From Anaerolineae bacterium (GTDB lineage Bacteria > Chloroflexota > Anaerolineae > JAAEKA01), in the NCBI GenBank assembly GCA_049294015.1, contig JBAQCH010000024.1:62226-126225 (forward strand): 64,000 bases of DNA, read 5' to 3'. Each line of letters starts with the position of its first letter. Position 1 is the first letter of the stretch. Positions 12,334 through 59,160 of this stretch are shown piece after piece. Position numbers and translations under genes: made by a program. Below the pieces are notes generated by a model that was not told the DNA's origin, searched no databases, and was given only the letters and a program-made list of their open reading frames with translations.

Positions 12334-15300
12334 ATGAAGGCTGATCGATTCACCGAAGACACCCTCGTCCAACAGACCACCGCCGACTACCTGGAACAGC
12401 AGCTCGGCTGGCGCTCGGTCTACGCCTACAACCGCGAGGACTTCGGGCCGGACAGCCTGCTGGGCCGGGCGTCGGACCGGGAGGTGGTGCTGACGCGGCC
12501 GCTGCGCGCCGCGCTGGCCGCGCTCAACCCGGACCTGCCCGCCGCGGCCTACGACGACGCCGTGCGCCAGCTCGTCAGCGTGACAGCCACCCAGTCGCTG
12601 CTGGCAACGAACCGCGAGAAGTATACCCTGATCCGCGATGGCGTGCCGGTCAGTTTCCGCAACGCCAGGGGCGAGCTGGAGCGGCGCCGGCTGCGGGTGA
12701 TCGACTTCGCCGACCCGGCCGCCAACGACTTCCTCTGCGTGCGCGAGCTGTGGGTGCGGGGCGACCTCTACCGGCGGCGGGCCGACATCGTGGGCTTCGT
12801 CAACGGCCTGCCCCTGCTCTTCATGGAGCTGAAGAACGTCAGCCGGGACATCCGCGCCGCCTACGAACGCAACTTCAAGGACTACCTGGATACCGTGCCC
12901 CACCTGTTCCACCACAACGCGGTGGTGGTGCTGGCCAACGGCGTGGACGCCAAGCTCGGCTCGCTGACCAGTCGCTTCGAGCACTTCCACGAGTGGAAGC
13001 GGCTGGACGAGGACGAGCCGGGCGTGGTGGACATGGAAACCCTGCTCAAGGGCATCTGCCAGCCGGCCAACTTCCTGGACCTGGTGGAGAACTTCATCCT
13101 CTTCGACGACTCGGCCGGCGAGCCGAGGAAGATACTGGCCCGCAACCACCAGTTCCTGGGCGTCAACCGCGCCATCCGGGCTGTGGAGGAGCGCCGCCAG
13201 CGCCAGGGCAAGCTGGGCGTCTTCTGGCACACCCAAGGCGCGGGCAAGAGCTACTCCATGGTCTTCTTCACGCGCAAGGTGCATCGCAAGCTGGGCGGCA
13301 ACTTTACCTTCCTGGTGCTCACCGACCGGGAGGACCTGGACACGCAGATCTACAAAACCTTTGCCGGCTGCGGCGTGGTGGACAACGACCGCGATCCCTG
13401 CCGGGCGGCCGGCGGCCAGCATCTGAACCAACTGCTGACCCTGCACAAGGCGTACATCTTCTCGCTGATCCAGAAGTTCAACCGCGACGTGGAGCCGGAT
13501 CAGCCCTACAGCGAGCGGGAGGACATCATTGTCATCAGCGACGAGGCCCACCGCAGCCAGTACGGCAGCCTGGCGCTGAACCTGCGCAACGCGCTGCCCA
13601 ACGCCAGCTCGATCGGCTTCACCGGCACGCCCCTCTTCAAGAATGACGAGATCACCCGCCGCGTCTTCGGCGACTACGTTTCCACCTACGACTTCCAGCG
13701 CGCGGTGGCGGACAAGGCCACTGTGCCCCTTTACTACGACGCGCGCGGCGACAAGCTGGGCGTGGTTACCGACGACCTGAACGAGCGCATCGCCGAGAAG
13801 CTGGAGGAGATGGAAAACTCCCTTCTCCCCACGGGAGAAGGGCCGGGGATGAGGGGATTCGACATCGACGTCGCCCAGCGGCTGGAGCGCGAGCTGGAGC
13901 GGGACTATCACGTCATCACCGCCGGTAAGCGGCTGGATCAGATCGCCCAGGACTTCGTCGAGCACTATTCAACCTCTTGGGAGACCGGCAAGGCGATGCT
14001 GGTCTGCATCGACAAGGTGACCTGCGTGCGCATGCACAAGCTGGTCGGGTTCTACTGGGATCAGCGCATCAAGGCGCTGGAGCGAGCAGCGCCCGCGGCG
14101 ACCGACGAGCAGGACGAGCAATATCGCCGTCGCCAGATCGAATGGATGCGCGCGACCCGCATGGCTGTGGTGATCAGCGAGGAGCAGGGCGAGGTGGCTA
14201 GATTCCAGCAGTGGGGATTGGACATCACGCCCCATCGCCGCCTCCTCAAGGAGGGCATGGACCTGCCGGAGGCCATGCGCCAGCAGCCCCAGTACCGCGC
14301 CATGCAGCGCCTGGCCCTGGACGATGCCTTCAAGGCCGAGCAGCACCCCTTCCGCATCGCCATCGTCTGCGCCATGTGGCTGACCGGCTTCGACGTGCCC
14401 AGCCTGGCGACGCTCTACCTGGACAAGCCACTCAAGGCCCACACCCTGATGCAGGCCATCGCGCGCGCCAACCGGGTCAACGAGGGCAAGAACAACGGCC
14501 TCCTCGTGGACTACTGCGGCATCCTCAAGAACCTGCGCCAGGCCCTGGCCACCTTTGCCGGCGCAGGGGATGGCGGCCGCGACGGCGACGGCGGCGAGAT
14601 CGACCCGGCCCGCCCTGAGCAGGAGCTGCTGGCCGATCTGGCTGAGGCCGTCGCGCTGGTGCAGGCGTTTTTGGCCGAACGGGGAGCGTCGCTGGATGCC
14701 ATCATCAGCCAGGCAGGCTTCGCCCGCAACGCGGCCATCCTGGCGGCCAAGGAAGCGGCCAACCAGAACGACGCGACGCGCAAGCGCTTCGAGGTCATGT
14801 GCCGGGCGGTGTTCAGCAAGTTCAAGGCTTGTCTGACCCTGGCCGGCGTCAACGCCCACCGGCGCGACAAGAGCGCCATCGACATCGTCTACCAGAGCCT
14901 GCAAGCCGACCGCGCGCAGGCCGACATCAGCGCCATCACGCAGGAATTGCACGAGATCGTCGACCAGGCCATCGCGGTGTGGCGCAGCCCGACAGCCGCT
15001 GACCGGGCGCCGTACGACATCAGCCAGATCGATTTCGAGCGCCTGCGACGGGAGTTCGAACGCAGCCCCGCCCAACGCACCACTGTGCAGAATCTCAAGA
15101 CTGCCATCGAGCGCCGCCTCCAGCGCCTGCTGGCGCAGAACCCCCTGCGAGCTGACTTGCAGCGGCGCTACGAGGAGATCGTGGCCGACTACAACCGCGA
15201 GAAGGACCGCCTGACCATCGAGCAGACCTTTGAGGAATTGCTGCGCTTCGTGCAAGCCATGGACGAGGAGGAGACGCGCGCCGCACGCGAGGGATTGACC

Positions 15301-15627
15301 GAGGAAACGCTAGCCGTGTTCGACCTGCTCAAGAAGCCTGAGCTGGCGCCGCAGGAGATCGAGCGCATTAAGAGGGTGGCGGGCGACTTGCTGGCGACGC
15401 TCAAGGCCGACAAGCTGCGCGTCGAGCAGTGGCAGGACAAGGAGGCCACGCGCGACGCCGTGCGCCAGGCCATCCTCGATTTCCTGTGGAACGACAGCAC
15501 CGGCCTGCCGGTCGGCCGCTACAGCGAGCGTGATGTGCAGGCGCGCGCCGACGTGGTCTATCAGCACGTCTTCCGGGTCTATCCCAGGCTGCCCTCGCCC
15601 TATTACGAGCTGCGCATGGCCGCGTAA
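12334..15627 (+). CDS. hsdR: Type I restriction enzyme R subunit HsdR (SF2 helicase/nuclease)
   Basis: 1097 aa; Walker A GVFWHTQGAGKSYSMVFF, DEAH box VISDEAHRSQYG, helicase motifs; long helical C-terminus. High GC like hsdM. Confidence 0.9.
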   Translation: MKADRFTEDTLVQQTTADYLEQQLGWRSVYAYNREDFGPDSLLGRASDREVVLTRPLRAALAALNPDLPAAAYDDAVRQLVSVTATQSLLATNREKYTLIRDGVPVSFRNARGELERRRLRVIDFADPAANDFLCVRELWVRGDLYRRRADIVGFVNGLPLLFMELKNVSRDIRAAYERNFKDYLDTVPHLFHHNAVVVLANGVDAKLGSLTSRFEHFHEWKRLDEDEPGVVDMETLLKGICQPANFLDLVENFILFDDSAGEPRKILARNHQFLGVNRAIRAVEERRQRQGKLGVFWHTQGAGKSYSMVFFTRKVHRKLGGNFTFLVLTDREDLDTQIYKTFAGCGVVDNDRDPCRAAGGQHLNQLLTLHKAYIFSLIQKFNRDVEPDQPYSEREDIIVISDEAHRSQYGSLALNLRNALPNASSIGFTGTPLFKNDEITRRVFGDYVSTYDFQRAVADKATVPLYYDARGDKLGVVTDDLNERIAEKLEEMENSLLPTGEGPGMRGFDIDVAQRLERELERDYHVITAGKRLDQIAQDFVEHYSTSWETGKAMLVCIDKVTCVRMHKLVGFYWDQRIKALERAAPAATDEQDEQYRRRQIEWMRATRMAVVISEEQGEVARFQQWGLDITPHRRLLKEGMDLPEAMRQQPQYRAMQRLALDDAFKAEQHPFRIAIVCAMWLTGFDVPSLATLYLDKPLKAHTLMQAIARANRVNEGKNNGLLVDYCGILKNLRQALATFAGAGDGGRDGDGGEIDPARPEQELLADLAEAVALVQAFLAERGASLDAIISQAGFARNAAILAAKEAANQNDATRKRFEVMCRAVFSKFKACLTLAGVNAHRRDKSAIDIVYQSLQADRAQADISAITQELHEIVDQAIAVWRSPTAADRAPYDISQIDFERLRREFERSPAQRTTVQNLKTAIERRLQRLLAQNPLRADLQRRYEEIVADYNREKDRLTIEQTFEELLRFVQAMDEEETRAAREGLTEETLAVFDLLKKPELAPQEIERIKRVAGDLLATLKADKLRVEQWQDKEATRDAVRQAILDFLWNDSTGLPVGRYSERDVQARADVVYQHVFRVYPRLPSPYYELRMAA
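13819..13857 (-). repeat. Second copy of the ~38-bp CCCTCATCCCCGGCCCTTCTCCC..GGGAGAAGGGAG palindromic element, inverted orientation, in-frame inside hsdR
   Basis: The reverse complement of 13819-13857 matches 1063-1100 at 38/39 nt. Encodes SLLPTGEGPGMRG in HsdR. Confidence 0.7.
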
Positions 15628-16374: not shown

Positions 16375-18543
16375 CTACCCCAGCACCATACGCACGTCCA
16401 CGGCCAGCGCACCCTGGCTGGCCGGATAGGCGAGCAATGGATTGACGTCGATTTCTTGAACTTCAGGGTGATCGAGGGCCAGGCAGGCCACGCGCTCGAT
16501 GACCTCAGCCACGGCATCGATGTCGGCCGGCGCCTGGCCGCGCAGACCCGCCAACAGCTTGCCGGCGTGCGTCTCGCCGATCATGGCCAGCGTCTCGGCC
16601 CGGCTGAAGGGCGCGACGCGGAAGGCCACGTCCTTGAGCAGCTCGACGTAGATGCCGCCCAACCCAAACATCAGCAGCGGGCCGAACTGCGGGTCGCGGC
16701 GCATCCCCACGATCAGCTCATGGCCGGGCAGCGCCATCTGCGTTACCAACACGCCTTCGATGCGAGCGTCGGACTGCCGCTCTTGGACGCGCGCCAGCAT
16801 GGCCGTGTACGCGGCCTGCACCGCCGCCTGGTCCGCCAGCTTGAGCGCGATGCCGCCCACCTCCGATTTGTGGAAGATGTCAGGCGAGACGATCTTCAAC
16901 GCCACGGGAAAGCCGATTTCCACCGCCAGCCGGCCGGCCTCATCGGCTGACCGCGCCAGCTCTGCCCGCGGCTGGGCAATGCCGTAGGCCGCCAGGATCG
17001 GCCGCGCCTCGGCCTCGCCAAGCTGAGCGGGACCAGGGGGAAGGGTGATCGGTGAACGGTGACCCTGGCTCGCCGGTTCTGAGGATAGGCGAGCGGTGAG
17101 CGGTGAGCGGTGAGCGGAGTCGGCTACCAATTTCCCAGTTTCCCAATTTCCCAATCTACCTCGTACCTCTGCATAGCGCCACAGCGCACCCAGCGCCCGC
17201 GCGGCCTGCTCCGGAAAGATGTAGCTGGCAATTTGGTGCTGGTGCAGCACGGCCATGGGCTGGCGCACTACCTCGTCGCCCATGAAACAGGCGACGACGG
17301 GCTTGTTTCTTTCAGATCCCGCCGCCCGCGCGATGGCCTCGGCCACGGCCACCGGATCGACCAGCGCTTGCGGCACCAGGATCGGCAGCACGGCGTCGAA
17401 GGCGTCGCTGGCCAGCAAGGCGGCCACGGCCTGCTCGTACTGCGCCGGCTCGGCCCCGCCCAGCATGTCCACCGGGTTGGCCAGTTGCGCCTCAGGATGG
17501 GTGAAGCCGGCCAACACCGCCTGCACAGATGCGGGCGTCGGCGGCATGAGCAGCCCCACTTGCTCGATGACATCGGCCGCCAGGCTGGCCGGCCCGCCCG
17601 CGTTGGTCACCACCGCCACCCGCGGCCCCCTCGGCAGCGGCCCGTAGGCCAGCGCCAGCGCGTGGTCGAACAGGTCCTCGACGGTGTCCACGCGCAGCAC
17701 GCCGGCCTGCTGGAAGGCCGCGTCGTAGGCCGCCATCTCGCCGGCCAGGCTGCCGGTGTGTGAAGAGACGGCGCGCGTGCCGGCCACCGTGCGGCCAGCC
17801 TTGATCACCAGGACCGGCTTGTGGGGGGTAATCTGCCGCGCCGCGTCGATGAAGCGCCGGCCGTCGCGGATGGCCTCGATGTAGGCCACGATCACCCGCG
17901 TGTTGGGGTCGTCGGCCAGGTCGAGCAGCAGGTCGGTCTCGCTGACGTCGGCGGCGTTGCCCAAGGTGGCGAAGCGGCTGAAGCCGATGCCCTTGCCGGC
18001 CGTCCATTCCAGGATGCCGCCGCAGATCGCGCCCGACTGGCTGACGAAGGCGATGGGGCCGGGCCGGGGCATGGTGCGGATGAAGGTGGTGTTGAGGCCG
18101 CTGTGCGCGTCCAACGTGCCGACGCAGTTGGGGCCGATCAGGCGCATGTTGTACTGGCCTGCAATGTGCAGCAGCGCTTGCTCCAGCGCCAGCCCCTCTG
18201 CGCCCACCTCGCGAAAGCCGCCGGAGATGATGATGGCCGCCTTGAGGCCGCGCCGGCCGCACGCTTCCAATACGCCCGGACAGGCTGCGGCCGGCGTCAT
18301 CAGCACGGCCAGCTCTACGGGGTCAGGCACGGCCTCGATGTCGGGATAGCAGGGCAGGCCCAGGATCTCGTGCGCGCGCGGGTTGACCGGATAGACTGCG
18401 CCCGTGAAGCCGTAGGTGAGACAGTTGCGCAGCACGCCGTGGCTGAGCTTGCGCGGGTCGGCTGACGCGCCGATGACGGCCACGCCGCTGGGGTTGAAGA
18501 AGGAGATAAGTGATGAGTGGGGCGCGGAGTTGGACATGCGCAA
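16375..18543 (-). CDS. Acetate--CoA ligase (ADP-forming) / NDP-forming acyl-CoA synthetase, fused alpha (CoA-binding plus ligase-CoA) and beta (ATP-grasp) domains
   Basis: N-terminal CoA-binding FFNPSGVAVIGASADPRK..GFTGAVYPVNP; C-terminal ATP-grasp start LGEAEARPILAAYGI. The inter-domain linker is encoded by a repeat element (see 17040-17170). Confidence 0.8.
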   Translation of the reverse strand: MRMSNSAPHSSLISFFNPSGVAVIGASADPRKLSHGVLRNCLTYGFTGAVYPVNPRAHEILGLPCYPDIEAVPDPVELAVLMTPAAACPGVLEACGRRGLKAAIIISGGFREVGAEGLALEQALLHIAGQYNMRLIGPNCVGTLDAHSGLNTTFIRTMPRPGPIAFVSQSGAICGGILEWTAGKGIGFSRFATLGNAADVSETDLLLDLADDPNTRVIVAYIEAIRDGRRFIDAARQITPHKPVLVIKAGRTVAGTRAVSSHTGSLAGEMAAYDAAFQQAGVLRVDTVEDLFDHALALAYGPLPRGPRVAVVTNAGGPASLAADVIEQVGLLMPPTPASVQAVLAGFTHPEAQLANPVDMLGGAEPAQYEQAVAALLASDAFDAVLPILVPQALVDPVAVAEAIARAAGSERNKPVVACFMGDEVVRQPMAVLHQHQIASYIFPEQAARALGALWRYAEVRGRLGNWETGKLVADSAHRSPLTARLSSEPASQGHRSPITLPPGPAQLGEAEARPILAAYGIAQPRAELARSADEAGRLAVEIGFPVALKIVSPDIFHKSEVGGIALKLADQAAVQAAYTAMLARVQERQSDARIEGVLVTQMALPGHELIVGMRRDPQFGPLLMFGLGGIYVELLKDVAFRVAPFSRAETLAMIGETHAGKLLAGLRGQAPADIDAVAEVIERVACLALDHPEVQEIDVNPLLAYPASQGALAVDVRMVLG
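17040..17170 (-). repeat. Heptamer/octamer tandem-repeat palindromic element (GGTGAGC x3, TTTCCCAA x3, CAATCTACC) lying in-frame inside the acetyl-CoA synthetase gene, where it encodes the inter-domain linker
   Basis: gagcggtgagcggtgagcggtgagcgg ... ttcccagtttcccaatttcccaatctacc; translated on the minus strand as GRLGNWETGKLVADSAHRSPLTARLSSEPASQGHRSPITLPPGP between the alpha-like and beta-like domains. Confidence 0.55.
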
Positions 18544-20814: not shown

Positions 20815-20900
20815 TCCGTAGCATGTAGCACGTAACACGTAACACGTAACTCGGAACCCGGAATGCACTCCGCATACACGCTCTGGGTTACGGATTACGC
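20815..20900 (+). repeat. GTAAC-type palindromic heptamer-repeat element (gtaacacgtaacacgtaactcgg...ccgg...gggttacggattacgc)
   Basis: Intergenic, between the Rieske gene and sufU; same family as 22996-23068 and 36793-36880. Confidence 0.55.
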
Positions 20901-21275
20901 ATCACTGTCCTCAACGCCCCACACGCCCGCCTTGAGCGCCTTCAACGGCAGCAGCGCGCATTTCAAACGCACCGGGCCGATCTCGATGCCCAGCAGGTCC
21001 AGGATATCGTCCTTGGTCCAGCTTTTCAGCTCGTCCAGCGACTTGCCGACGATCTCCTCGGTCATCATGGAGGCCGAGGCCTGGCTGATGGCGCAGCCGC
21101 GGCCGTCGAAGGCCGCGTCCACCACCACGCCATCCTCGATCTTCAGCTCCAGCGTGATCTCGTCGCCGCAAAAGGGGTTGTGGTCGAAGTGGCTGATGTC
21201 GGGGTTGTCCAGATGACCCTTGTGGCGCGGATATTTGTAGTGGTCGAGGATAGCCTCGCGGTAGAGTGCGTCCAT
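20895..21275 (-). CDS. sufU: SufU/IscU-like (NifU N-terminal family) Fe-S scaffold/sulfur acceptor
   Basis: MDALYREAILDHYKYPRHKG...NPFCGDEITL...DGRGCAISQASASMMTE; start refined within the longer ORF. Confidence 0.8.
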   Translation of the reverse strand: MDALYREAILDHYKYPRHKGHLDNPDISHFDHNPFCGDEITLELKIEDGVVVDAAFDGRGCAISQASASMMTEEIVGKSLDELKSWTKDDILDLLGIEIGPVRLKCALLPLKALKAGVWGVEDSDA

Positions 21276-22995: not shown

Positions 22996-23068
22996 GTGTA
23001 ACGAGTAACCCGTAACCCGGAAGCGCGCACGCGCAATTCCGGGTTACGTTTTACTCGTTACTCGTTGC
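22996..23068 (+). repeat. GTAAC-type palindromic element (gtaacgagtaacccgtaacccgg-aagcgcgcacgcgcaatt-ccgggttacgttttactcgttactcg)
   Basis: Near-perfect inverted repeat, intergenic between the second sufU and the rhodanese gene. Confidence 0.55.
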
Positions 23069-25456: not shown

Positions 25457-25570
25457 GGGAAGGAAACAGGTAGACAAGTAAACAAGTAGACAAGGGGCAG
25501 GTTGCAGATTTCGCTCGCTTCCTTGTCTTCCCATTCCGCCCCTTGTTTCCTTGTCTACCTGTCTACTTGT
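25457..25570 (+). repeat. GTAGACAAG-type palindromic heptamer-repeat element (caggtagacaagtaaacaagtagacaagg ... ccttgtctacctgtctacttgtctac)
   Basis: Long inverted repeat between sufD and sufB; related element at 38395-38528. Confidence 0.55.
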
Positions 25571-26986
25571 CTACCCAATACTGCCTTCCATCTGCAACTG
25601 GATCAGGCGGTTCATCTCGACGGCGTATTCCATCGGCAGCTCTTTGACCATTGGCTCGATGAAGCCGCTGACGATCATCGTCGCCGCCTCTTCCTCGCCC
25701 AGGCCGCGGCTCATCAGGTAGAAGATCTGCTCTTCATTGACCTTGCTGACGCTGGCCTCGTGGCCCACCTGCACGTCCTGCTCGTCGATCTCGATGTAGG
25801 GGTAGGTGTCAGAGCGGCTGTGGTCGTCCAGCAGCAGCGCATCGCACACTACCGTCGACTTGGAGCCGCTTGCGCCCTTGGCTACCTTGAGCAGGCCGCG
25901 GTAGGAAGCGCGGCCGCCGTTCTTGCTGATCGACTTGGAGATGATCTTGGAGGAGGTGTTGGGCGCGCCATGCACCACCTTGCCGCCCGCGTCCAGCGTC
26001 TGTCCGTGGCCGGCGAAGGCGATGGAGAGGATCTCGCCGTGGGCTCGCGGTCCCATCATGTAGACCGCCGGGTACTTCATCGTCACCTTCGAACCTAGAT
26101 TCGCGTCGATCCACTCCATGGTGGCGCCGGCCTCGGCGATGGCGCGCTTGGTGACCAGGTTGTAGACGTTGTTGGACCAGTTCTGGATCGTGCTGTAGCG
26201 GCAGCGGCCGCCTTCCTTGACGATGATCTCCACCACGGCGCTGTGCAGCGAATCCGAGGCGTAGATCGGCGCGGTGCAGCCTTCGACGTAGTGGACGCTG
26301 GCGCCCTCTTCGACGATGATCAGCGTGCGCTCGAACTGGCCCATGTTCTGGGCGTTGATGCGGAAGTACGCCTGCAAGGGGATATCCACGTGGACGCCCT
26401 TGGGCACGTAGACGTAGCTGCCGCCCGACCAGACAGCCGAATTCAGGGCAGCGAACTTGTTGTCTGACGGCGGGATGACGGAGCCAAAGTACTCCTTGAA
26501 GACATCCTCGTGCTCGCGCAGGCCGCTGTCGGTATCCAGGAAGATCACGCCCAGCTTGGTCCACTGCTCTTGCAGCGAATGATAGACCACCTCGGACTCG
26601 TACTGTGCGCCGACGCCGGCCAGGAAGCTGCGTTCGGCCTCGGGGATGCCCAGGCGGTCGAAGGTGTCCTTGATGCTATCCGGGATGTCGTCCCAGCTCT
26701 TGCCCTGCTTCTCGGTGGGCCTGAGGTAGTAGTAGATGTTGTCGAAGTCGATCTCGCTCAGGTCGGCGCCCCAGGTGGGCATCGGCTTCGACAGGAAGAT
26801 GTCCAGGGACCGATGGCGGAACTCGCGCATCCAGTCGGCCTCGTTCTTCATGTCGCACATCTGATCGATGACCTCGTGACTCAGACCCCGCTTCGATTTG
26901 AAAACGAACTCTTCCGGCTTGCTGAAGCCATATTGATACTCATCTTTTACGCCCGCAAGGGCTTCGCGGTCACTGGTAGTAGCCAT
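25571..26986 (-). CDS. sufB: Fe-S cluster assembly protein SufB
   Basis: 471 aa, [12 protein letters not shown]...; highly conserved SufB sequence throughout. Confidence 0.9.
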
Positions 26987-26994
26987 ACTGTTCT

Positions 26995-27177
26995 CCAGTT
27001 CGTACTCGGTAGTGGTAAATTGGTAGATTGGTGGATTGGTCGGTTGGCAGGGTTGGCGGGGTTGGCAGAGAGGTAGATTGGCAGAGTAGTCAAAGCAATC
27101 AGAAAAGCTGCATTTTGACTGACCCAACATGCCTCCGGCGTACCAATTTACCAATCTACCAATCTACCAGTTCCTTG
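26995..27177 (+). repeat. GGTAGATTGG / CCAATCTACC-type palindromic heptamer-repeat element
   Basis: ggtagattggtggattggtcggttggcagggttggcggggttggcagagaggtagattgg ... ccaatttaccaatctaccaatctacc; intergenic between sufB and sufC. Confidence 0.55.
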
Positions 27178-36792: not shown

Positions 36793-36880
36793 GTGTAACA
36801 CGTAACACGTAACCCGTAACCCGGAGAGTCTGCGCATGGCGCACATTCCGGGTTACAGGGTTACGCATTACGAGTTACAG
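36793..36880 (+). repeat. GTAAC-type palindromic element (gtaacacgtaacacgtaacccgtaacccgg ... ccgggttacagggttacgcattacgagttac)
   Basis: Intergenic between the PPIase and carboxypeptidase genes. Confidence 0.55.
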
Positions 36881-38386
36881 CCCGTACAGCTCGCCATACT
36901 TGCCCTTCAGATAGGCGATGTAGGGATCGATGGTCAGCGGCGCGCCGGTCACCTGCTCCACCAGCAGCGGCGCAGTGAACTTGCTGCCGTGCTGGTAGAT
37001 GCGCTCGCGTAGCCAGCCGCGCAGGGTGTCGAACTGGCCCTGGGCGATCTGCTCGCCGATCTCTGGATGGGCCGCGTTGGCAGCCTGCCAGAAGGCCGCG
37101 CTCAGGATATTGCCCAGCGTATAGCCCTGGAAGCCGCCGCCGATCTGACTATAGTACCAGTGCATGTCCTGCAAGACGCCATCCCGGTCGTCGGGCACGT
37201 CTACGCCGAGGGCCTCGCGGTAGCTGGCGCGCCAAGCTTCGGGCAAGTCCTTGACGGCCAGTGTGCCCTCCAACAGGGCTAACTCCAGATCGAAGCGGAT
37301 GATGACGTGCAGGTTATAGGTCACCTCGTCGGCGTCGACGCGGACGAGGCTGGGCCGCACCTTGTTGATGGCGCGATAGAAGGCGTCGAGCGGTATTTCG
37401 CCCAACTGCTGCGGGAAGATGGCCTGAAGCTGCGGGTAGTAGTAGCTCCAGAAGGGCCGGCTGCGGCCGACCAGGTTCTCCCACAGCCGCGACTGGCTTT
37501 CATGCACACCGGCCGATGTCCCGCCGCCCAGCGGCGTGCCGCCGAAGGCTGGATTGATACCCTGCTCGTACATGGCATGGCCCGACTCGTGCATGGTCGA
37601 GAAGAGGCCGTCGCCCAGGTCGTCCTCGCGGAAGCGGGTGGTGATGCGCACGTCGCCCGGCCCGAACTTGATCATGAACGGGTGGTGGGTCTTGTCTTGC
37701 CGGCCGCGCTGGAAGTCGTAGCCGAAGCGCTTGACCACATCGACGCCGAAGTCCCACTGCTGTTGCTCAGGATAGTGGCGATAGAGGAACGAGTCGTCGG
37801 GCGCCGGCTGCGCCTGGATCGCCTCCACCAGCGGCGTGAGTTGTTCCCGCAGCGCGGCAAACAGCGGCCGCAGCATGGCCACGGTCATACCGTAGTCGGC
37901 TTCGTTGATCAGCGGGTCAGCGATGTGCCCGCCGGCCGGCCAGCCGAAATACTCAGCTGCGCGGCGGCTGAGCTCCAGCGTCTTTTCCAGCAGCGGCTGC
38001 ATGGCGGCGAAGTCATTCGCCGGTCGCGCCACGGTCCACGCCTGGTAGGAGCGCGCCGCGTGGCTCGACAGTTCAGCTACGAACGCGGGCGGCAGCTTGG
38101 TCGCCCGCTCGTATTCGCGGCGGGTGACGCGAACGAGGCTGGCTTCGTCGTTGTCGTAGGGCAGCGTTTCCTGGTAGGGCTGCAAGTCCTCCAGCAGCTG
38201 GCCCAGCGCGGGAGAGGTGAACTTTTCCTGAGCCAGCCGGCTGAGCGTGGCCAGTTGCTGGCCGCGCGTCTCGGCCCCGCCCGGCGGCATGTAGGTCGCC
38301 TGGTCCCAGTACAACAGCGCCGCGGCCCCATGCAGGTCATACACCTCCTGCAGTCGCGTCTTTAACTCGGTGAGTCTCTCTTGCAT
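36875..38386 (-). CDS. M32 family (Taq-like) metallocarboxypeptidase
   Basis: HESGHAMYEQG zinc motif; approximately 500 aa; start refined to MQERLTEL. Confidence 0.85.
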   Translation of the reverse strand: MQERLTELKTRLQEVYDLHGAAALLYWDQATYMPPGGAETRGQQLATLSRLAQEKFTSPALGQLLEDLQPYQETLPYDNDEASLVRVTRREYERATKLPPAFVAELSSHAARSYQAWTVARPANDFAAMQPLLEKTLELSRRAAEYFGWPAGGHIADPLINEADYGMTVAMLRPLFAALREQLTPLVEAIQAQPAPDDSFLYRHYPEQQQWDFGVDVVKRFGYDFQRGRQDKTHHPFMIKFGPGDVRITTRFREDDLGDGLFSTMHESGHAMYEQGINPAFGGTPLGGGTSAGVHESQSRLWENLVGRSRPFWSYYYPQLQAIFPQQLGEIPLDAFYRAINKVRPSLVRVDADEVTYNLHVIIRFDLELALLEGTLAVKDLPEAWRASYREALGVDVPDDRDGVLQDMHWYYSQIGGGFQGYTLGNILSAAFWQAANAAHPEIGEQIAQGQFDTLRGWLRERIYQHGSKFTAPLLVEQVTGAPLTIDPYIAYLKGKYGELYGL

Positions 38387-38394
38387 GCGTAGTC

Positions 38395-38528
38395 TCCTCA
38401 GGGTTGAGGTAGACAGGTAAACAAGCAGACAAGAAGACAAGGCCGGAACCTGTCCACCTCACCAATCTACCAATCTACCAATCTACCAATTACTTGTCTA
38501 CCAATCTACCAATTACTTGCCTACCTGT
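38395..38528 (+). repeat. Composite palindromic heptamer-repeat element (GTAGACA and CCAATCTACC units)
   Basis: gaggtagacaggtaaacaagcagacaagaagacaagg ... ccaatctaccaatctaccaatctaccaattacttgtctacc ... cctacctgtctacttgtctacttgtctacc. Confidence 0.55.
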
Positions 38529-39221
38529 CTACTTGTCTACTTGTCTACCTGCCTTCACCGTCCGCCGCGTCTGCCGCACAATGCGCACCCAGTTGCGCAT
38601 GTGCGTCCAGGGGTCGATGTGGCTGCCCTGGTCGCCGTAGATGGTGCGGATGGGCACCCCGTCCAGCACGTAGCCGCGCTGCACGCAGGTGACGATCATC
38701 TCGACCTCGAACTCGAAGCCGTGCTCCTGGCTGTCCAGCACGGCCTCGGCCATGCGCCGGCTGAGCAGCCGATAGCCCGACTGGTTGTCCTCGACCCGCT
38801 GGCCCAGCGCCCAGGAGAAGCTCCAGCGGCCCAGGGTGTTGGCCGCGCGGCGGCTCAGCGGCATCTGGCTGAAGTCGCGGCAACCGATCAGCAGGTCGGC
38901 GTGGGTTACAGCCTGCCGCGCCAGAAAGGCCGGAATCTCGGCCGGGTCGTGCTGGCCGTCGGCATCCAGCGTCAGCACAGAGTCATGGCCGTGGGCCAGC
39001 GCCCAACGCAGGCCGGCCCGCAGCGCCGCGCCCTTGCCCTGGTTGGGAATCTGGCGCAGCACCGTCGCGCCGGCAGCCTCGGCCAGCGCGGCCGTGTCGT
39101 CGCGCGAGCCGTCGTCCACCACCAGCGCTGGCAAGTGCTTGAGCGTGGCCGCGATCACCGGCGCGATGCGCTGCGCCTCGTTGTAGGCGGGGATCAGCGC
39201 CAACGGGTTGCAGTGCTCCAT
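38529..39221 (-). CDS. Family 2 glycosyltransferase (dolichol-phosphate mannosyltransferase-like)
   Basis: ..LIPAYNEAQRI...VVDDGSRDDT...LDADGQHDP.. Confidence 0.8.
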   Translation of the reverse strand: MEHCNPLALIPAYNEAQRIAPVIAATLKHLPALVVDDGSRDDTAALAEAAGATVLRQIPNQGKGAALRAGLRWALAHGHDSVLTLDADGQHDPAEIPAFLARQAVTHADLLIGCRDFSQMPLSRRAANTLGRWSFSWALGQRVEDNQSGYRLLSRRMAEAVLDSQEHGFEFEVEMIVTCVQRGYVLDGVPIRTIYGDQGSHIDPWTHMRNWVRIVRQTRRTVKAGRQVDK

Positions 39222-47864: not shown

Positions 47865-49196
47865 TCAAGAAGCCAGCCCGGCCAGCCCGCGCGGCTCGCG
47901 CACCCAGCGGTGCAGCGCGACCAGGCCGGCCAGACAAAACAGTGCGCTGACGGCAAAGAGCGTATCGTAGCTGCGGGTGGCCAGCCAGGCGCCGATCAGC
48001 GGGCTGGCCATGCCCATCAGGCCCAGCGCAGTGTTGATCAGGCCGGTGTAGGTGGGGCGCAGGTCAGCCGGCGAGAACTCCAGCGTGATCATGGTGCCGG
48101 AAACCACGGCGGCGCCTGTGCCCAGGCCCAGCAGGACGAAGACGACGTAGTACCATGCCGGGGTTGGCGCCTGCCAGGCCAGCAGATAGGCGGCAGTCAG
48201 CAGCGCGCAGCTCAGCTCCAGCGGCAGCTTGTGGCCTTTGCGATCGGCCAAGAAGCCCGCGGCGGCATTGGCGACGGTCTGGCCGATCAACAGCGCCAGC
48301 GTGTACAGGCCGACAACGCCATCGGACACCTGCCAACGAGATACCGCCGCCACCGTCAGGAAACCGGCTCCCATGCCGCCCAGCACCAGCAGCAAACGGG
48401 CCAGGATGAAGCGGCGAAAGTTGCCATCGCTGCGCAAAATCTGTGGCAGTCCGGCCCAGAACTGGCTGTTGCTTTGCCGCGGAGCAGTCACCGCTTGCTC
48501 TGGCTCGCGGGCGAAGGCCAGGAAGGCCCAACTGAGGGTGATGAAGAAAGCTGCCAGCGTGAAGGTGGCCACGAAGTTGGTGGGGAAGACCAGCGTGGCC
48601 AGCAGCCAGGCGCTGAAGGTTGCGCCCAGCGCGCCTGTGCCATTGCCCACGAAGGTGGTGATGCCAAAAAAGCGGCCGCGGCGATCGACTGGAAAGATAC
48701 GGGCCACCAGGTCCTGCCAGGCTGTGGCCACGACGCCCGCGCCCACGGCATGGCCTGCGTAGCCCAGGAAGAAGAGCACCAGAGCCAGCGTTGGCGACTC
48801 GACTGCCAGCAGAGCAGCCAAAGGAAGCAGCCACAGCGGCAGCCGTTCGGTGAAGAAGCCCAGGTTGACCACGACGGGTTTGCGGCGCGGCAGGCGCTGG
48901 ACGGTGTTGGCGGTGAAGAGCTGCGGCAGGAACCAGCCGCTGTTGGCGATCACCGCGATCAAGCCAATGGCGAGCTGGCTGCTGGTCAGCTTGCTGACGA
49001 ACAGCGGCACGATGGTGGCGCTGGACATGAAGCTCAAGCCCAGCCAGAAAGTTGCGCCGTCCAGCAGGTTGAAGGCGAAGTTCCAGGGATAGTTGCGTTC
49101 GACCTCGCGGGCCACATCGAGCGCACTACGCGCGGGCGGGGCAGGGTCGGCGCGCAGCAGGCGGCGCATGGCGGATCGAACGTAGAGGTTGAACAT
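47865..49196 (-). CDS. MFS transporter
   Basis: 12 predicted TM segments; ..[10 protein letters not shown].. loop motif between TM2 and TM3. Confidence 0.75.
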
Positions 49197-49199
49197 AGG

Positions 49200-49320
49200 A
49201 TCGTGGAACGAGGGGCGGGCAGCGTGAAACGTAAAACGTGACCAGAGAGCAGTCTCGGTCACGTTTCACGGTTCACGCCGTACGGCGGACGCGTCTTGGG
49301 AAGCAGCGCGCAGAAGATCC
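49200..49320 (+). repeat. Palindromic element gtgaaacgtaaaacgtgacc-N13-ggtcacgtttcacggttcacg, sharing GTCACGTT/AACGTGAC half-sites with the REP at 58.6 kb
   Basis: Intergenic between the MFS transporter and FadD genes. Confidence 0.5.
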
Positions 49321-58589: not shown

Positions 58590-59160
58590 CGAACGCATGT
58601 CACGTTGATAACGTGACCTACGCCACATCCTTGGTAGGTCCGGCTACCAGCCGGACAGAGCGCCCGTCACGTTGATAACGTGACCTACGCGCATCGTTGG
58701 TAGGTCCGGCTACCAGCCGGACAGAGCGCCCGTCACGTTGATAACGTGACCTACGCCGCATCGTTGCGCAGGTCCGGCTACCAGCCGGACAGAGCGCCCG
58801 TCACGTTGATAACGTGACCTACGCGCATCGTTGGTAGGTCCGGCTACCAGCCGGACGGCACGCCTGTCACGTTGGTAACGTGACCTACGCCGCATCGTCG
58901 CGTAGGTCCGGCTACCAGCCGGACAGCACGCCTGTCACGTTGGTAACGTGACCTACGCCGCATCGTCGCGTAGGTCCGGCTACCAGCCGGACAGCACGCA
59001 TGTCACGTTGATAACGTGACCTACGCGCATTGTTGATAGGTCCGGCTATCAGCCAGACAGCACGCATGTCACGTTGATAACGTGACCTACGCGCATTGTT
59101 GGTAGGTCCGGCTACCAGCCGGACAGCACGCCTGTCACGTTGCTAACGTGACTACTGCTG
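58590..59160 (+). repeat. Tandem array of about 9 REP units of roughly 66 bp; each unit has palindrome GTCACGTT-GAT-AACGTGAC and a second hairpin TCCGGCT-ACC-AGCCGGA (REPIN/BIME-like)
   Basis: Directly visible periodicity of about 66 bp; units differ by a few substitutions (gataacg/ggtaacg/gctaacg). Confidence 0.85.

Follow-up and report, generated by a model that had tools for sequence, protein, structure and literature searches.

How did short tandem-repeat DNA come to be translated between the two halves of a conserved enzyme? The question is raised by one gene in a 64,000-nt stretch of an Anaerolineae contig (JBAQCH010000024.1, positions 62,226 to 126,225; hereafter the window, in which position 1 is the first letter). 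Open reading frame (ORF) 16375-18543, on the minus strand, encodes a 722-aa protein of the ADP-forming acyl-CoA synthetase (ACD) family, in which an alpha-like and a beta-like half are joined by a linker containing translated arrays of 7- and 8-nt units. An initial annotation of this DNA had read the arrays as a mobile palindromic element, of one family with intergenic elements in a nearby suf operon, that either fused two once-separate genes or entered an existing linker and was exapted there. The analysis reported here favours, at a probability of roughly 0.7, a more ordinary history, namely a normal fused enzyme whose linker was colonised by old repeat arrays that have been turning over and are tolerated as a tether.

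Domain architecture of the enzyme

The ORF opens with TTG, and an ATG two codons further in would give a 720-aa product. Four Pfam domains scored above cut-off (PF13380, PF13607, PF19045 and PF13549) in the order CoA-binding, succinyl-CoA-ligase-like flavodoxin, Ligase-CoA and ATP-grasp, with CoA_binding_2 at residues 21-143, Succ_CoA_lig at 161-297, Ligase_CoA_2 at 309-464 and ATP-grasp_5 at 506-721 (E = 2.9e-81). When aligned to solved structures, residues 13-462 were covered by the alpha subunit of a two-subunit archaeal enzyme (4xyl_A) and residues 505-721 by its beta subunit (4xyl_B), and a fused 698-aa 4-hydroxybutyrate-CoA ligase (8wzu_A) spanned residues 16-719 uninterrupted. Because the Pfam and 4xyl boundaries leave residues 461-506 between the halves, this 46-aa segment (RGRLGNWETGKLVADSAHRSPLTARLSSEPASQGHRSPITLPPGPA; 17026-17163) was taken as the inter-domain linker, with the alpha-like part at residues 1-460 (17164-18543) and the beta-like ATP-grasp part at residues 507-722 (16375-17025), all on the minus strand. 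The repeats had thus been placed correctly between an alpha-like and a beta-like domain.

Both the alpha motif SHTGS and the beta motif HKSE, two histidine motifs that we take to hold the catalytic residues, were kept in the window protein, and S261, H262, T263, G264, H558, K559 and S560 fall in invariant columns of an 84-sequence alignment. The NCBIfam equivalogs for acetate-, 3-hydroxypropionate- and 4-hydroxybutyrate-specific enzymes were all missed (TIGR02717, 522.6 vs a cut-off of 567.15; NF045494, 463 vs 1200; NF045493, 568.7 vs 1300), so the earlier name of acetyl-CoA synthetase is not established. As judged from its domains, the product is a fused alpha-beta ADP-forming acyl-CoA synthetase of ordinary type; since the profiles appear to support only the family level, 'ADP-forming acyl-CoA synthetase family protein' would be the safe label.

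An AlphaFold2 model built on the same alignment had a mean predicted local distance difference test score (pLDDT) of 91.3 and a predicted TM-score of 0.89. Both halves scored above 90, and values below 50 were confined to residues 1-8 and 472-494. The final alpha-domain helix (residues 444-471) continues into the octamer-encoded RGRLGNWETGKL, and the linker-encoded peptide as a whole is rich in Ser, Pro, Arg and Gly. The repeat-encoded peptide is therefore predicted to lie outside the folded core, with residues 472-494 disordered. Catalysis in ADP-forming acetyl-CoA synthetases depends on communication between the halves. The model suggests that the linker most likely serves as no more than a flexible, passive connection between the two well-folded halves, and nothing unusual is implied for the enzyme itself.

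Short tandem repeats are error-prone in assemblies, and an assembly or sequencing artefact could have made the repeat appear to be in frame. However, an independent Logan assembly gave a 720-aa product (P0001) that was 100% identical, which makes a sequencing or assembly error unlikely, and homologous arrays were present in many independent metagenome-assembled genomes (MAGs). The probability left to an artefact is close to negligible, and the in-frame repeat noted initially is to be regarded as real.

Repeat arrays in the linker

All arrays in the linker are in frame and stop-free within the 722-aa ORF, in agreement with the initial annotation and the ORF list, and the linker peptide quoted there was also correct. 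Reading along the coding (minus) strand, an octamer array comes first (17125-17160), with the units GGTAGATT GGGAAATT GGGAAACT GGGAAATT GGTA (Tandem Repeats Finder (TRF) period 8, 3.6 copies); it can be written as (CCAATTTC)x3.6 with the terminal unit CCAATCTACC, and it encodes GRLGNWETGKLV. It is followed by the spacer GCCGACTCC (17116-17124), which is kept in orthologous linker DNA, and then by heptamer array A (17088-17115), which reads (GCTCACC)x3 then GCTCGCC and encodes AHRSPLT. On the plus strand this array is GGCGAGC then (GGTGAGC)x3 (TRF 3.9 copies, 100% match), so the (GGTGAGC)x3 first described is present, with a GGCGAGC unit ahead of it. Heptamer array B (17044-17064; direct repeat D2) reads GGTCACC GTTCACC GATCACC on the coding strand and GGTGATC GGTGAAC GGTGACC on the plus strand, and encodes GHRSPIT. 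The observed repeat counts were reached in 0/100 dinucleotide-preserving shuffles.

A 30-nt stretch private to the window (17064-17093, minus strand; approximately ARLSSEPASQ) overlaps the last heptamer of array A. It is a gap in all eight of the other orthologous linkers and appears as a 10-aa insertion in the protein alignment. It contains a 7-bp inverted repeat, GCTCGCC at 17068-17074 and GGCGAGC at 17088-17094, in which one array unit recurs in inverted orientation; the 7-bp stem appears in the RNA fold prediction.

The description of the element as palindromic did not hold for the linker copy. No complementary arms were found in it by repeat search, and its predicted RNA fold was no better than that of shuffled sequence (z = 0.01), compared with z of -3.1 to -10.3 for the intergenic elements of the window. 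The linker copy is a pair of 'solo' arrays. No internal promoter-like or terminator-like site was found within the linker, and no Rfam family matched over window positions 15-40 kb.

Fused state and ancestral linker length

Among the 120 best homologues, all full-length proteins were fused alpha-beta proteins, and the shorter entries were fragments or were frameshifted at the linker. Matches in Proteobacteria and in one Nitrososphaerales archaeon extended in one piece from residues ~2-16 to ~704-722. In 62 distant homologues (53-57% identity, mostly Anaerolineae), the linker, measured between the ...RYAxW and LGEAxxRP anchors, was non-repetitive and 26-41 aa long (median 30). As all these full-length homologues and 8wzu are fused, the fusion predates the repeat-bearing lineage, and on the homologue survey the fused architecture with a linker of ~30 aa is ancestral.

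These observations bear directly on the first of the two histories proposed at the outset, in which a repeat element landed between separate alpha and beta genes and fused them into one ORF. Such an event has some appeal, as there are archaeal enzymes whose alpha and beta subunits are separate (4xyl_A and 4xyl_B) and the repeats sit exactly at the alpha/beta junction. Against it stand the fused homologues, which include Anaerolineae with repeat-free 30-aa linkers, the proteobacterial and archaeal loci covering both halves in one piece, and the solved structure of the fused 698-aa enzyme. The sole 'split' relative (L159) was set aside as a sign of separate subunits, since its assembly holds further broken genes. 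Fusion by the repeat is thus extremely improbable, and that part of the initial annotation is abandoned.

The second proposed history, insertion into a pre-existing linker, is borne out in essence, with some corrections. A linker of ~30 aa is indeed ancestral, and the repeat linker, put at ~45 aa, is 46 aa long. However, because repeat-free homologues already have ~30 aa, the net addition is ~16 aa in the window and about 6-16 aa across the close clade. This gain is so small because the arrays largely replaced the ancestral linker instead of being added to it, and they are clade-wide and old, as described below.

Linker evolution among close orthologues

The closest orthologues (~76-88% identical) came from MAGs labelled Caldilineales, Anaerolineae or Chloroflexota. 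Their linkers were 27-46 aa long (median 36) and read as translated repeats, such as GRLVDWEIG and HRSPITD. Linker identity to these close orthologues was 19-63%, compared with 77-91% for the remaining protein, making the linker the least conserved part of the protein. The linkers of the window and eight orthologues could be aligned at the DNA level; nine of nine were in frame, as were nearly all protein orthologues. The order of octamer array, GCCGACTCC, heptamer array and CCCTCCCCCCGGTCCCGC was common to five of the nine (window, L033, L030, L015 and L001), with GCCGACTCC exact in all but L030, which has one change, and the other four diverged beyond the octamer array.

The heptamer unit was homogenised within each orthologue and different between orthologues, being GCTCACC in the window, GCTCCCC in L015, ATTACCG in L033, TTCATCG in L030 and TCACGNT in L004 and L019. 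At the same site, neighbouring sub-clades had RGSEV/REIRTV from (CAGAAGT)-like units or REGKEGKEG, and in one relative (P0028) expanded arrays gave a 95-aa linker. In L004 and L019 the C-terminal portion of the ancestral linker survives as ELLAQAVAHGQT, alignable with distant homologues; the window type has LPPGPA instead. The loss of this segment in the window type indicates that the arrays largely replaced the old linker. The window linker was the longest among the 23 closest relatives owing to the extra 30 nt with the inverted copy of one unit.

Repeats were missing from the linkers of the 62 distant homologues, and no presence/absence difference was seen among close relatives, so the event is old. 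The claim that the repeat had been exapted is retained in that the arrays are translated and tolerated, but not beyond that, as they form the least conserved part of the protein. Taken from the comparison of orthologues, the linker arrays are old, fast-changing and tolerated repeat DNA and not an adaptive invention.

Relationship to intergenic elements

The suf operon near the ACD gene lies on the same strand and comprises sufC, sufB, sufD, a rhodanese gene, sufU, sufS, a Rieske gene and sufT. Its spacers, and two spacers at ~36.8 and ~38.5 kb, contain elements with two complementary arms of 7-8-nt tandem arrays, and their RNA folds are far stronger than those of shuffled sequence. The nearest relative of the linker octamer array within the window is the sufC-sufB intercistronic palindrome (27008-27170), with arms of (GGTAGATT)n and (ACCAATCT)n (z = -4.2). 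The sufB-sufD palindrome (25458-25576; z = -6.2), with arms of (CAAGTAGA)n, is of the same element class with another unit, and a third palindrome lies between the rhodanese gene and sufU (22996-23066), with arms of (CGTAACN)n. CGTAACN-type elements are also found at 20817-20905 and 36793-36882, the z values of the three being -7.6, -3.1 and -10.3. A further intergenic palindrome of (GTAGACAA)n/(TTGTCTAC)n at 38405-38555 (z = -5.3) has a solo (ACCAATCT)n array nested in its right half (38460-38515), which suggests that one array type inserted into, or grew inside, another element. The sufC-sufB, sufB-sufD, rhodanese-sufU and 38405-38555 elements are given on the minus strand. No Rfam match was obtained for the intercistronic array hairpins.

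Nine exact copies of the 10-mer GGTAGATTGG are present in the window, of which one lies in the linker and the others are confined to the sufC-sufB element (27022-27168) and the element at 38405-38555 (38462-38510). Since the two share this 10-mer, the octamer part of the linker belongs to the family of the suf elements, and to that extent the family membership assigned in the initial annotation stands; it does not extend to the GGTGAGC heptamer, which is single-copy in the window.

The suf operons of four further genomes (L154-L157; 98, 96, 94 and 93% SufB identity), retrieved via SufB homologues, were compared. Unit type is mostly kept in each spacer; the number of copies and the variants of the unit differ, with the arms remaining complementary. 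A GGTAGATT-type element is present in the sufC-sufB spacer of L154-L156 and a different unit in L157, and these versions are still hairpins (z -2.2 to -5.0). The sufB-sufD spacer has a CAAGTAGA-type element in L154, L156 and L157, and in L155 the arm now consists of ~13 copies of GCAGGTT/GCAAGTT. The position of the rhodanese-sufU element is kept, its CGTAAC-type arrays being clearest in L155-L157. In Litorilinea aerophila (82% SufB identity) the arrays are absent and the spacer shows no fold (z = +1.1). This pattern suggests long residence of the suf elements with fast internal turnover and co-varying arms. When relatives were checked for a gene order linking ACD to the suf operon, only the ACD-NUDIX pair proved to be conserved.

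The shared 10-mer also bears on whether the linker arrays were born in place by local slippage, their likeness to the intergenic repeats being convergence, for instance from a polymerase slippage bias towards 7-8-nt units. Heptamer repeats have been reported to be over-represented in bacteria and this has been ascribed to slippage (PMC4692102), and the homogenised units within each orthologue would fit. On the other hand, the exact 10-mer is common to the intergenic arrays, the non-coding sufC-sufB spacer of L155 even has the GGGAAATT variant, and the same array is found in frame in unrelated genes (see below); convergence on identical units at so many loci would be unlikely. An independent local origin is accordingly judged unlikely.

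Possible stop-codon avoidance and reading frame

In the frame of the linker, a pure (GGTAGATT)3 array would read GGT AGA TTG GTA GAT TGG TAG and end in a stop codon. In the window, L015, L030, L004 and L025, the unit at the stop position is GGGAAAYT or GGAAAATT, and the codon is GAA or AAA. Where arrays are in frame and forward-oriented, GGGAWAYT or AGGAAATT takes the place of GGTAGATT at every third unit, and the in-frame TAG is thereby removed. The resulting 24-nt super-period with an altered third unit is also seen in the in-frame arrays of two other genes (L084 and L113, described below). The altered third unit is consistent with selection against stop codons; as the GGGAAATT variant also occurs in the non-coding L155 spacer, the pattern does not amount to proof of selection.

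Because neither 7 nor 8 is a multiple of three, gain or loss of a unit could in principle shift the frame and make the arrays a slippage switch, in which the beta half is uncoupled or silenced and activity becomes phase-variable. Two relatives could be read in this way. P0064 (L159:3001-5182) is split into 495-aa alpha and 228-aa beta ORFs at linker (GAGGTCA)x3, and P0055 is out of frame after HRSPFTVH in the linker. However, the L159 assembly also has fragmented ABC-transporter and rhodanese genes (L154), making errors the more likely explanation, and nearly all orthologues are in frame. Moreover, arrays of 3-4 units slip rarely, and a gene for an enzyme of housekeeping type is no evident candidate for a contingency locus. 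A switch function is therefore considered very unlikely.

Dispersal and other translated copies

The (GGTAGATT)2GG array was found in at least 120 metagenomic contigs, with a median GC content of 0.62 among the matches listed. Among those with enough flanking sequence, 59/84 array clusters had a single orientation and 25/84 had both, and solo arrays were common. Related repeat classes flank ACD loci with an array linker (L001, L012, L015, L016 and L019) and were absent from most other sampled flanks.

The initial annotation had proposed a search for further intragenic copies, and such copies were found in the metagenomic contigs. Because a cruder ORF-spanning screen was too noisy at high GC, candidates were retained only where Pfam domains flanked the array on either side. 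In a glycyl-tRNA synthetase (alpha-beta fused protein; L084:3666-3875), a full GGTAGATT-family palindrome is in frame, and the beta-subunit Pfam profile is split into positions 1-285 before and 294-536 after the ~53-aa element, which consists of (GGTAAATC GGTGGATC AGGAAATT)x4 and (CCAATCTA)x4. In an HdrA-like oxidoreductase (L113:12299-14047, minus strand), an in-frame full palindrome of ~92 aa lies between the FAD-binding and 4Fe-4S parts, with a predicted -150 kcal/mol for the 330-nt stretch folded. Further plausible in-frame cases are a PMT_2 glycosyltransferase (L089) and a GT1 (L042).

Dispersal of this kind could mean that a mobile palindromic element transposed into the linker recently and in this genome only, in the manner of a miniature inverted-repeat transposable element (MITE) or a REPIN. 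In favour of this are the unit common to dispersed intergenic copies, the spread of the array over so many metagenomic contigs, and the window-private 30-nt addition with its inverted unit. However, orthologues with as little as ~76% identity share the array architecture at this site, the linker copy has neither terminal inverted repeats nor a hairpin, no target-site duplication is visible, and the intergenic copies are positionally stable between genomes. Neither hopping nor a transposase was seen, a transposase not having been searched for systematically. A recent transposition is thus decidedly unlikely, and 'mobile' does not describe arrays that, at orthologous ACD and suf sites, are long-lived residents with internal turnover.

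Proposed history of the linker

The favoured history, colonisation of the linker of an ordinary fused enzyme by old arrays, would run as follows. The array class is taken to be abundant in a Caldilineales-like Chloroflexota lineage, where it would normally form intercistronic hairpins. Arrays would have colonised the ~30-aa linker in an ancestor of the lineage and largely replaced it. They may have been resident there since, with rapid turnover through gain, loss and homogenisation of units, probably by replication slippage or gene conversion. The visible constraints would be a total length that preserves the frame and the avoidance of stop codons.

Several points weigh against this history. 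Among close relatives no 'empty site' turned up, which leaves the original insertion inferred, and outside the linker the GGTGAGC heptamer does not recur within the 64 kb of the window. Gene conversion, and not common descent, might maintain part of the likeness between the linker and intergenic arrays. The neighbour-joining tree that places the linker variants carries no support values, translation across the arrays was read from ORF and orthologue sequence alone, and the role as a passive tether was drawn solely from the predicted structure and low conservation.

A bolder formulation is that the Caldilineales-like Chloroflexota hold an undescribed repeat class of array-armed palindromes (tandem 7-8-nt units), long-resident, with co-varying arms in intercistronic spacers and repeatedly translated in core enzymes (the ACD linker, GlyRS beta and the HdrA-like protein), and that the ACD linker is a domesticated half-element that could be frameshift-switchable. 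As a whole this is doubtful, and it is put forward only tentatively.

Comparison with known repeat systems

In-frame insertions of MITEs and of Rickettsia palindromic elements (RPEs) have been reviewed (PMC10969869), and there is precedent for repetitive extragenic palindromic (REP) sequences inside genes and for repeat clusters encoding 43-82 aa (PMC3733652). As with RPEs and REPs in ORFs, a small non-coding repeat of a dispersed kind lies in frame here within genes that are conserved and apparently functional; a surface peptide is added, the fold is unbroken and several unrelated genes are affected. Unlike the RPE, which is one unique 100-150-bp palindrome, the linker DNA consists of tandem 7-8-nt units and has lost, or never had, a complementary arm. 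Whereas the RPE adds a loop, the arrays replace an existing inter-domain linker, and their sequence turns over quickly between orthologues.

Three tandem heptanucleotides have been described in Calothrix, and intergenic heptamers of Xanthomonas and Nostoc keep their position and vary in length between related genomes (PMC4692102). The suf elements behave like the Xanthomonas heptamers, staying at the same place in related genomes as their length and sequence vary. The short tandemly repeated repetitive (STRR) sequences of Calothrix and Nostoc and the Xanthomonas GGGAATC repeats are, as here, tandem 7-nt units that are mostly intergenic. Here, however, the unit sequences are different, the 7- and 8-nt arrays mostly form two complementary arms and long hairpins, and the host is a member of the Chloroflexota. 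To our knowledge, translated copies inside enzymes have not been reported for STRR sequences.

The window elements also resemble REPs, bacterial interspersed mosaic elements and REPINs in being intercistronic operon hairpins in many copies. Some window units (GGTAGATT and CAAGTAGA) contain GTAG, which is the tag of one REP super-family (PMC3733652). However, REPs and REPINs are single imperfect palindromes of 20-40 bp with a terminal GTAG, and in the window the motif lies within arms that are tandem arrays of 30-150 nt. No description of such repeats in Chloroflexota or Caldilinea was found in the literature consulted, which is not proof of absence. Relative to known repeats, the new features would be the arms built of 7-8-nt arrays, the phylum, the use as a linker replacing an ancestral one and the clade-wide hypervariability. 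The window enzyme itself has the same domain set and order as the fused 8wzu and the two-subunit 4xyl, with halves that align end to end, and differs in its 46-aa repeat-encoded linker, compared with ~30 aa.

These findings would extend repeat DNA of the Rickettsia type inside protein genes to a free-living, high-GC phylum and to non-triplet tandem arrays. The orthologues offer a natural series of linkers, from 27 to 95 aa, for a two-domain enzyme. They also carry a warning for annotation: between domains and in loops, Chloroflexota proteins can contain hypervariable segments derived from repeats, and these are prone to frameshift miscalls in long-read assemblies.

Additional repeats and genomic neighbourhood

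The TCACGNT unit type seen in the ACD linkers of L004 and L019 was also found in N-terminal extensions (HASRVTLHA) of other ACD orthologues, some of which have repeat-like extensions at this end. Within the window, a (TCACGNT)x2.7 array lies at 49259-49277, at the 5' end of gene 47865-49262 (minus strand).

A second in-frame insertion hot spot was observed in ACD at residue ~411, in a loop of Ligase_CoA_2 (L001:10001-12208, L015:3981-6149, L004 and L012). Some orthologues carry GSRYGADAYST xN, with a 42-nt unit, at this site, and others SSGRSPDRASP xN, with the hairpin CTGGCCGGTCTCCTGACCGAGCCAG. The insert is absent in the window, L030 and L033, and the window holds no copies of such insert elements. 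The CTGGCCGGTCTCCTGACCGAGCCAG hairpin is also repeated seven times in tandem outside the gene at L001:17670-17919.

A tandem array with a 66-nt unit is located at 58593-59152 (8.4 copies, 92% match; also scored with period 134), in a gap of ~1.3 kb without a coding-like ORF, and has the hairpin-like cores GTCACGTTGATAACGTGAC and GTCCGGCTACCAGCCGGAC. As its copies match at 92%, it is inconsistent with a CRISPR with variable spacers.

Relatives differ in the DNA beside the conserved ACD-NUDIX pair. The window has, on the far side of the NUDIX gene, an ORF of 1097 aa (12334-15627) that resembles the R subunit of a type I restriction enzyme on inspection of its sequence, and in L030/L031 genes for AbiEi/AbiEii, Fic and DUF559 proteins lie upstream of ACD. 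This suggests a variable defence-gene neighbourhood around the ACD-NUDIX pair.

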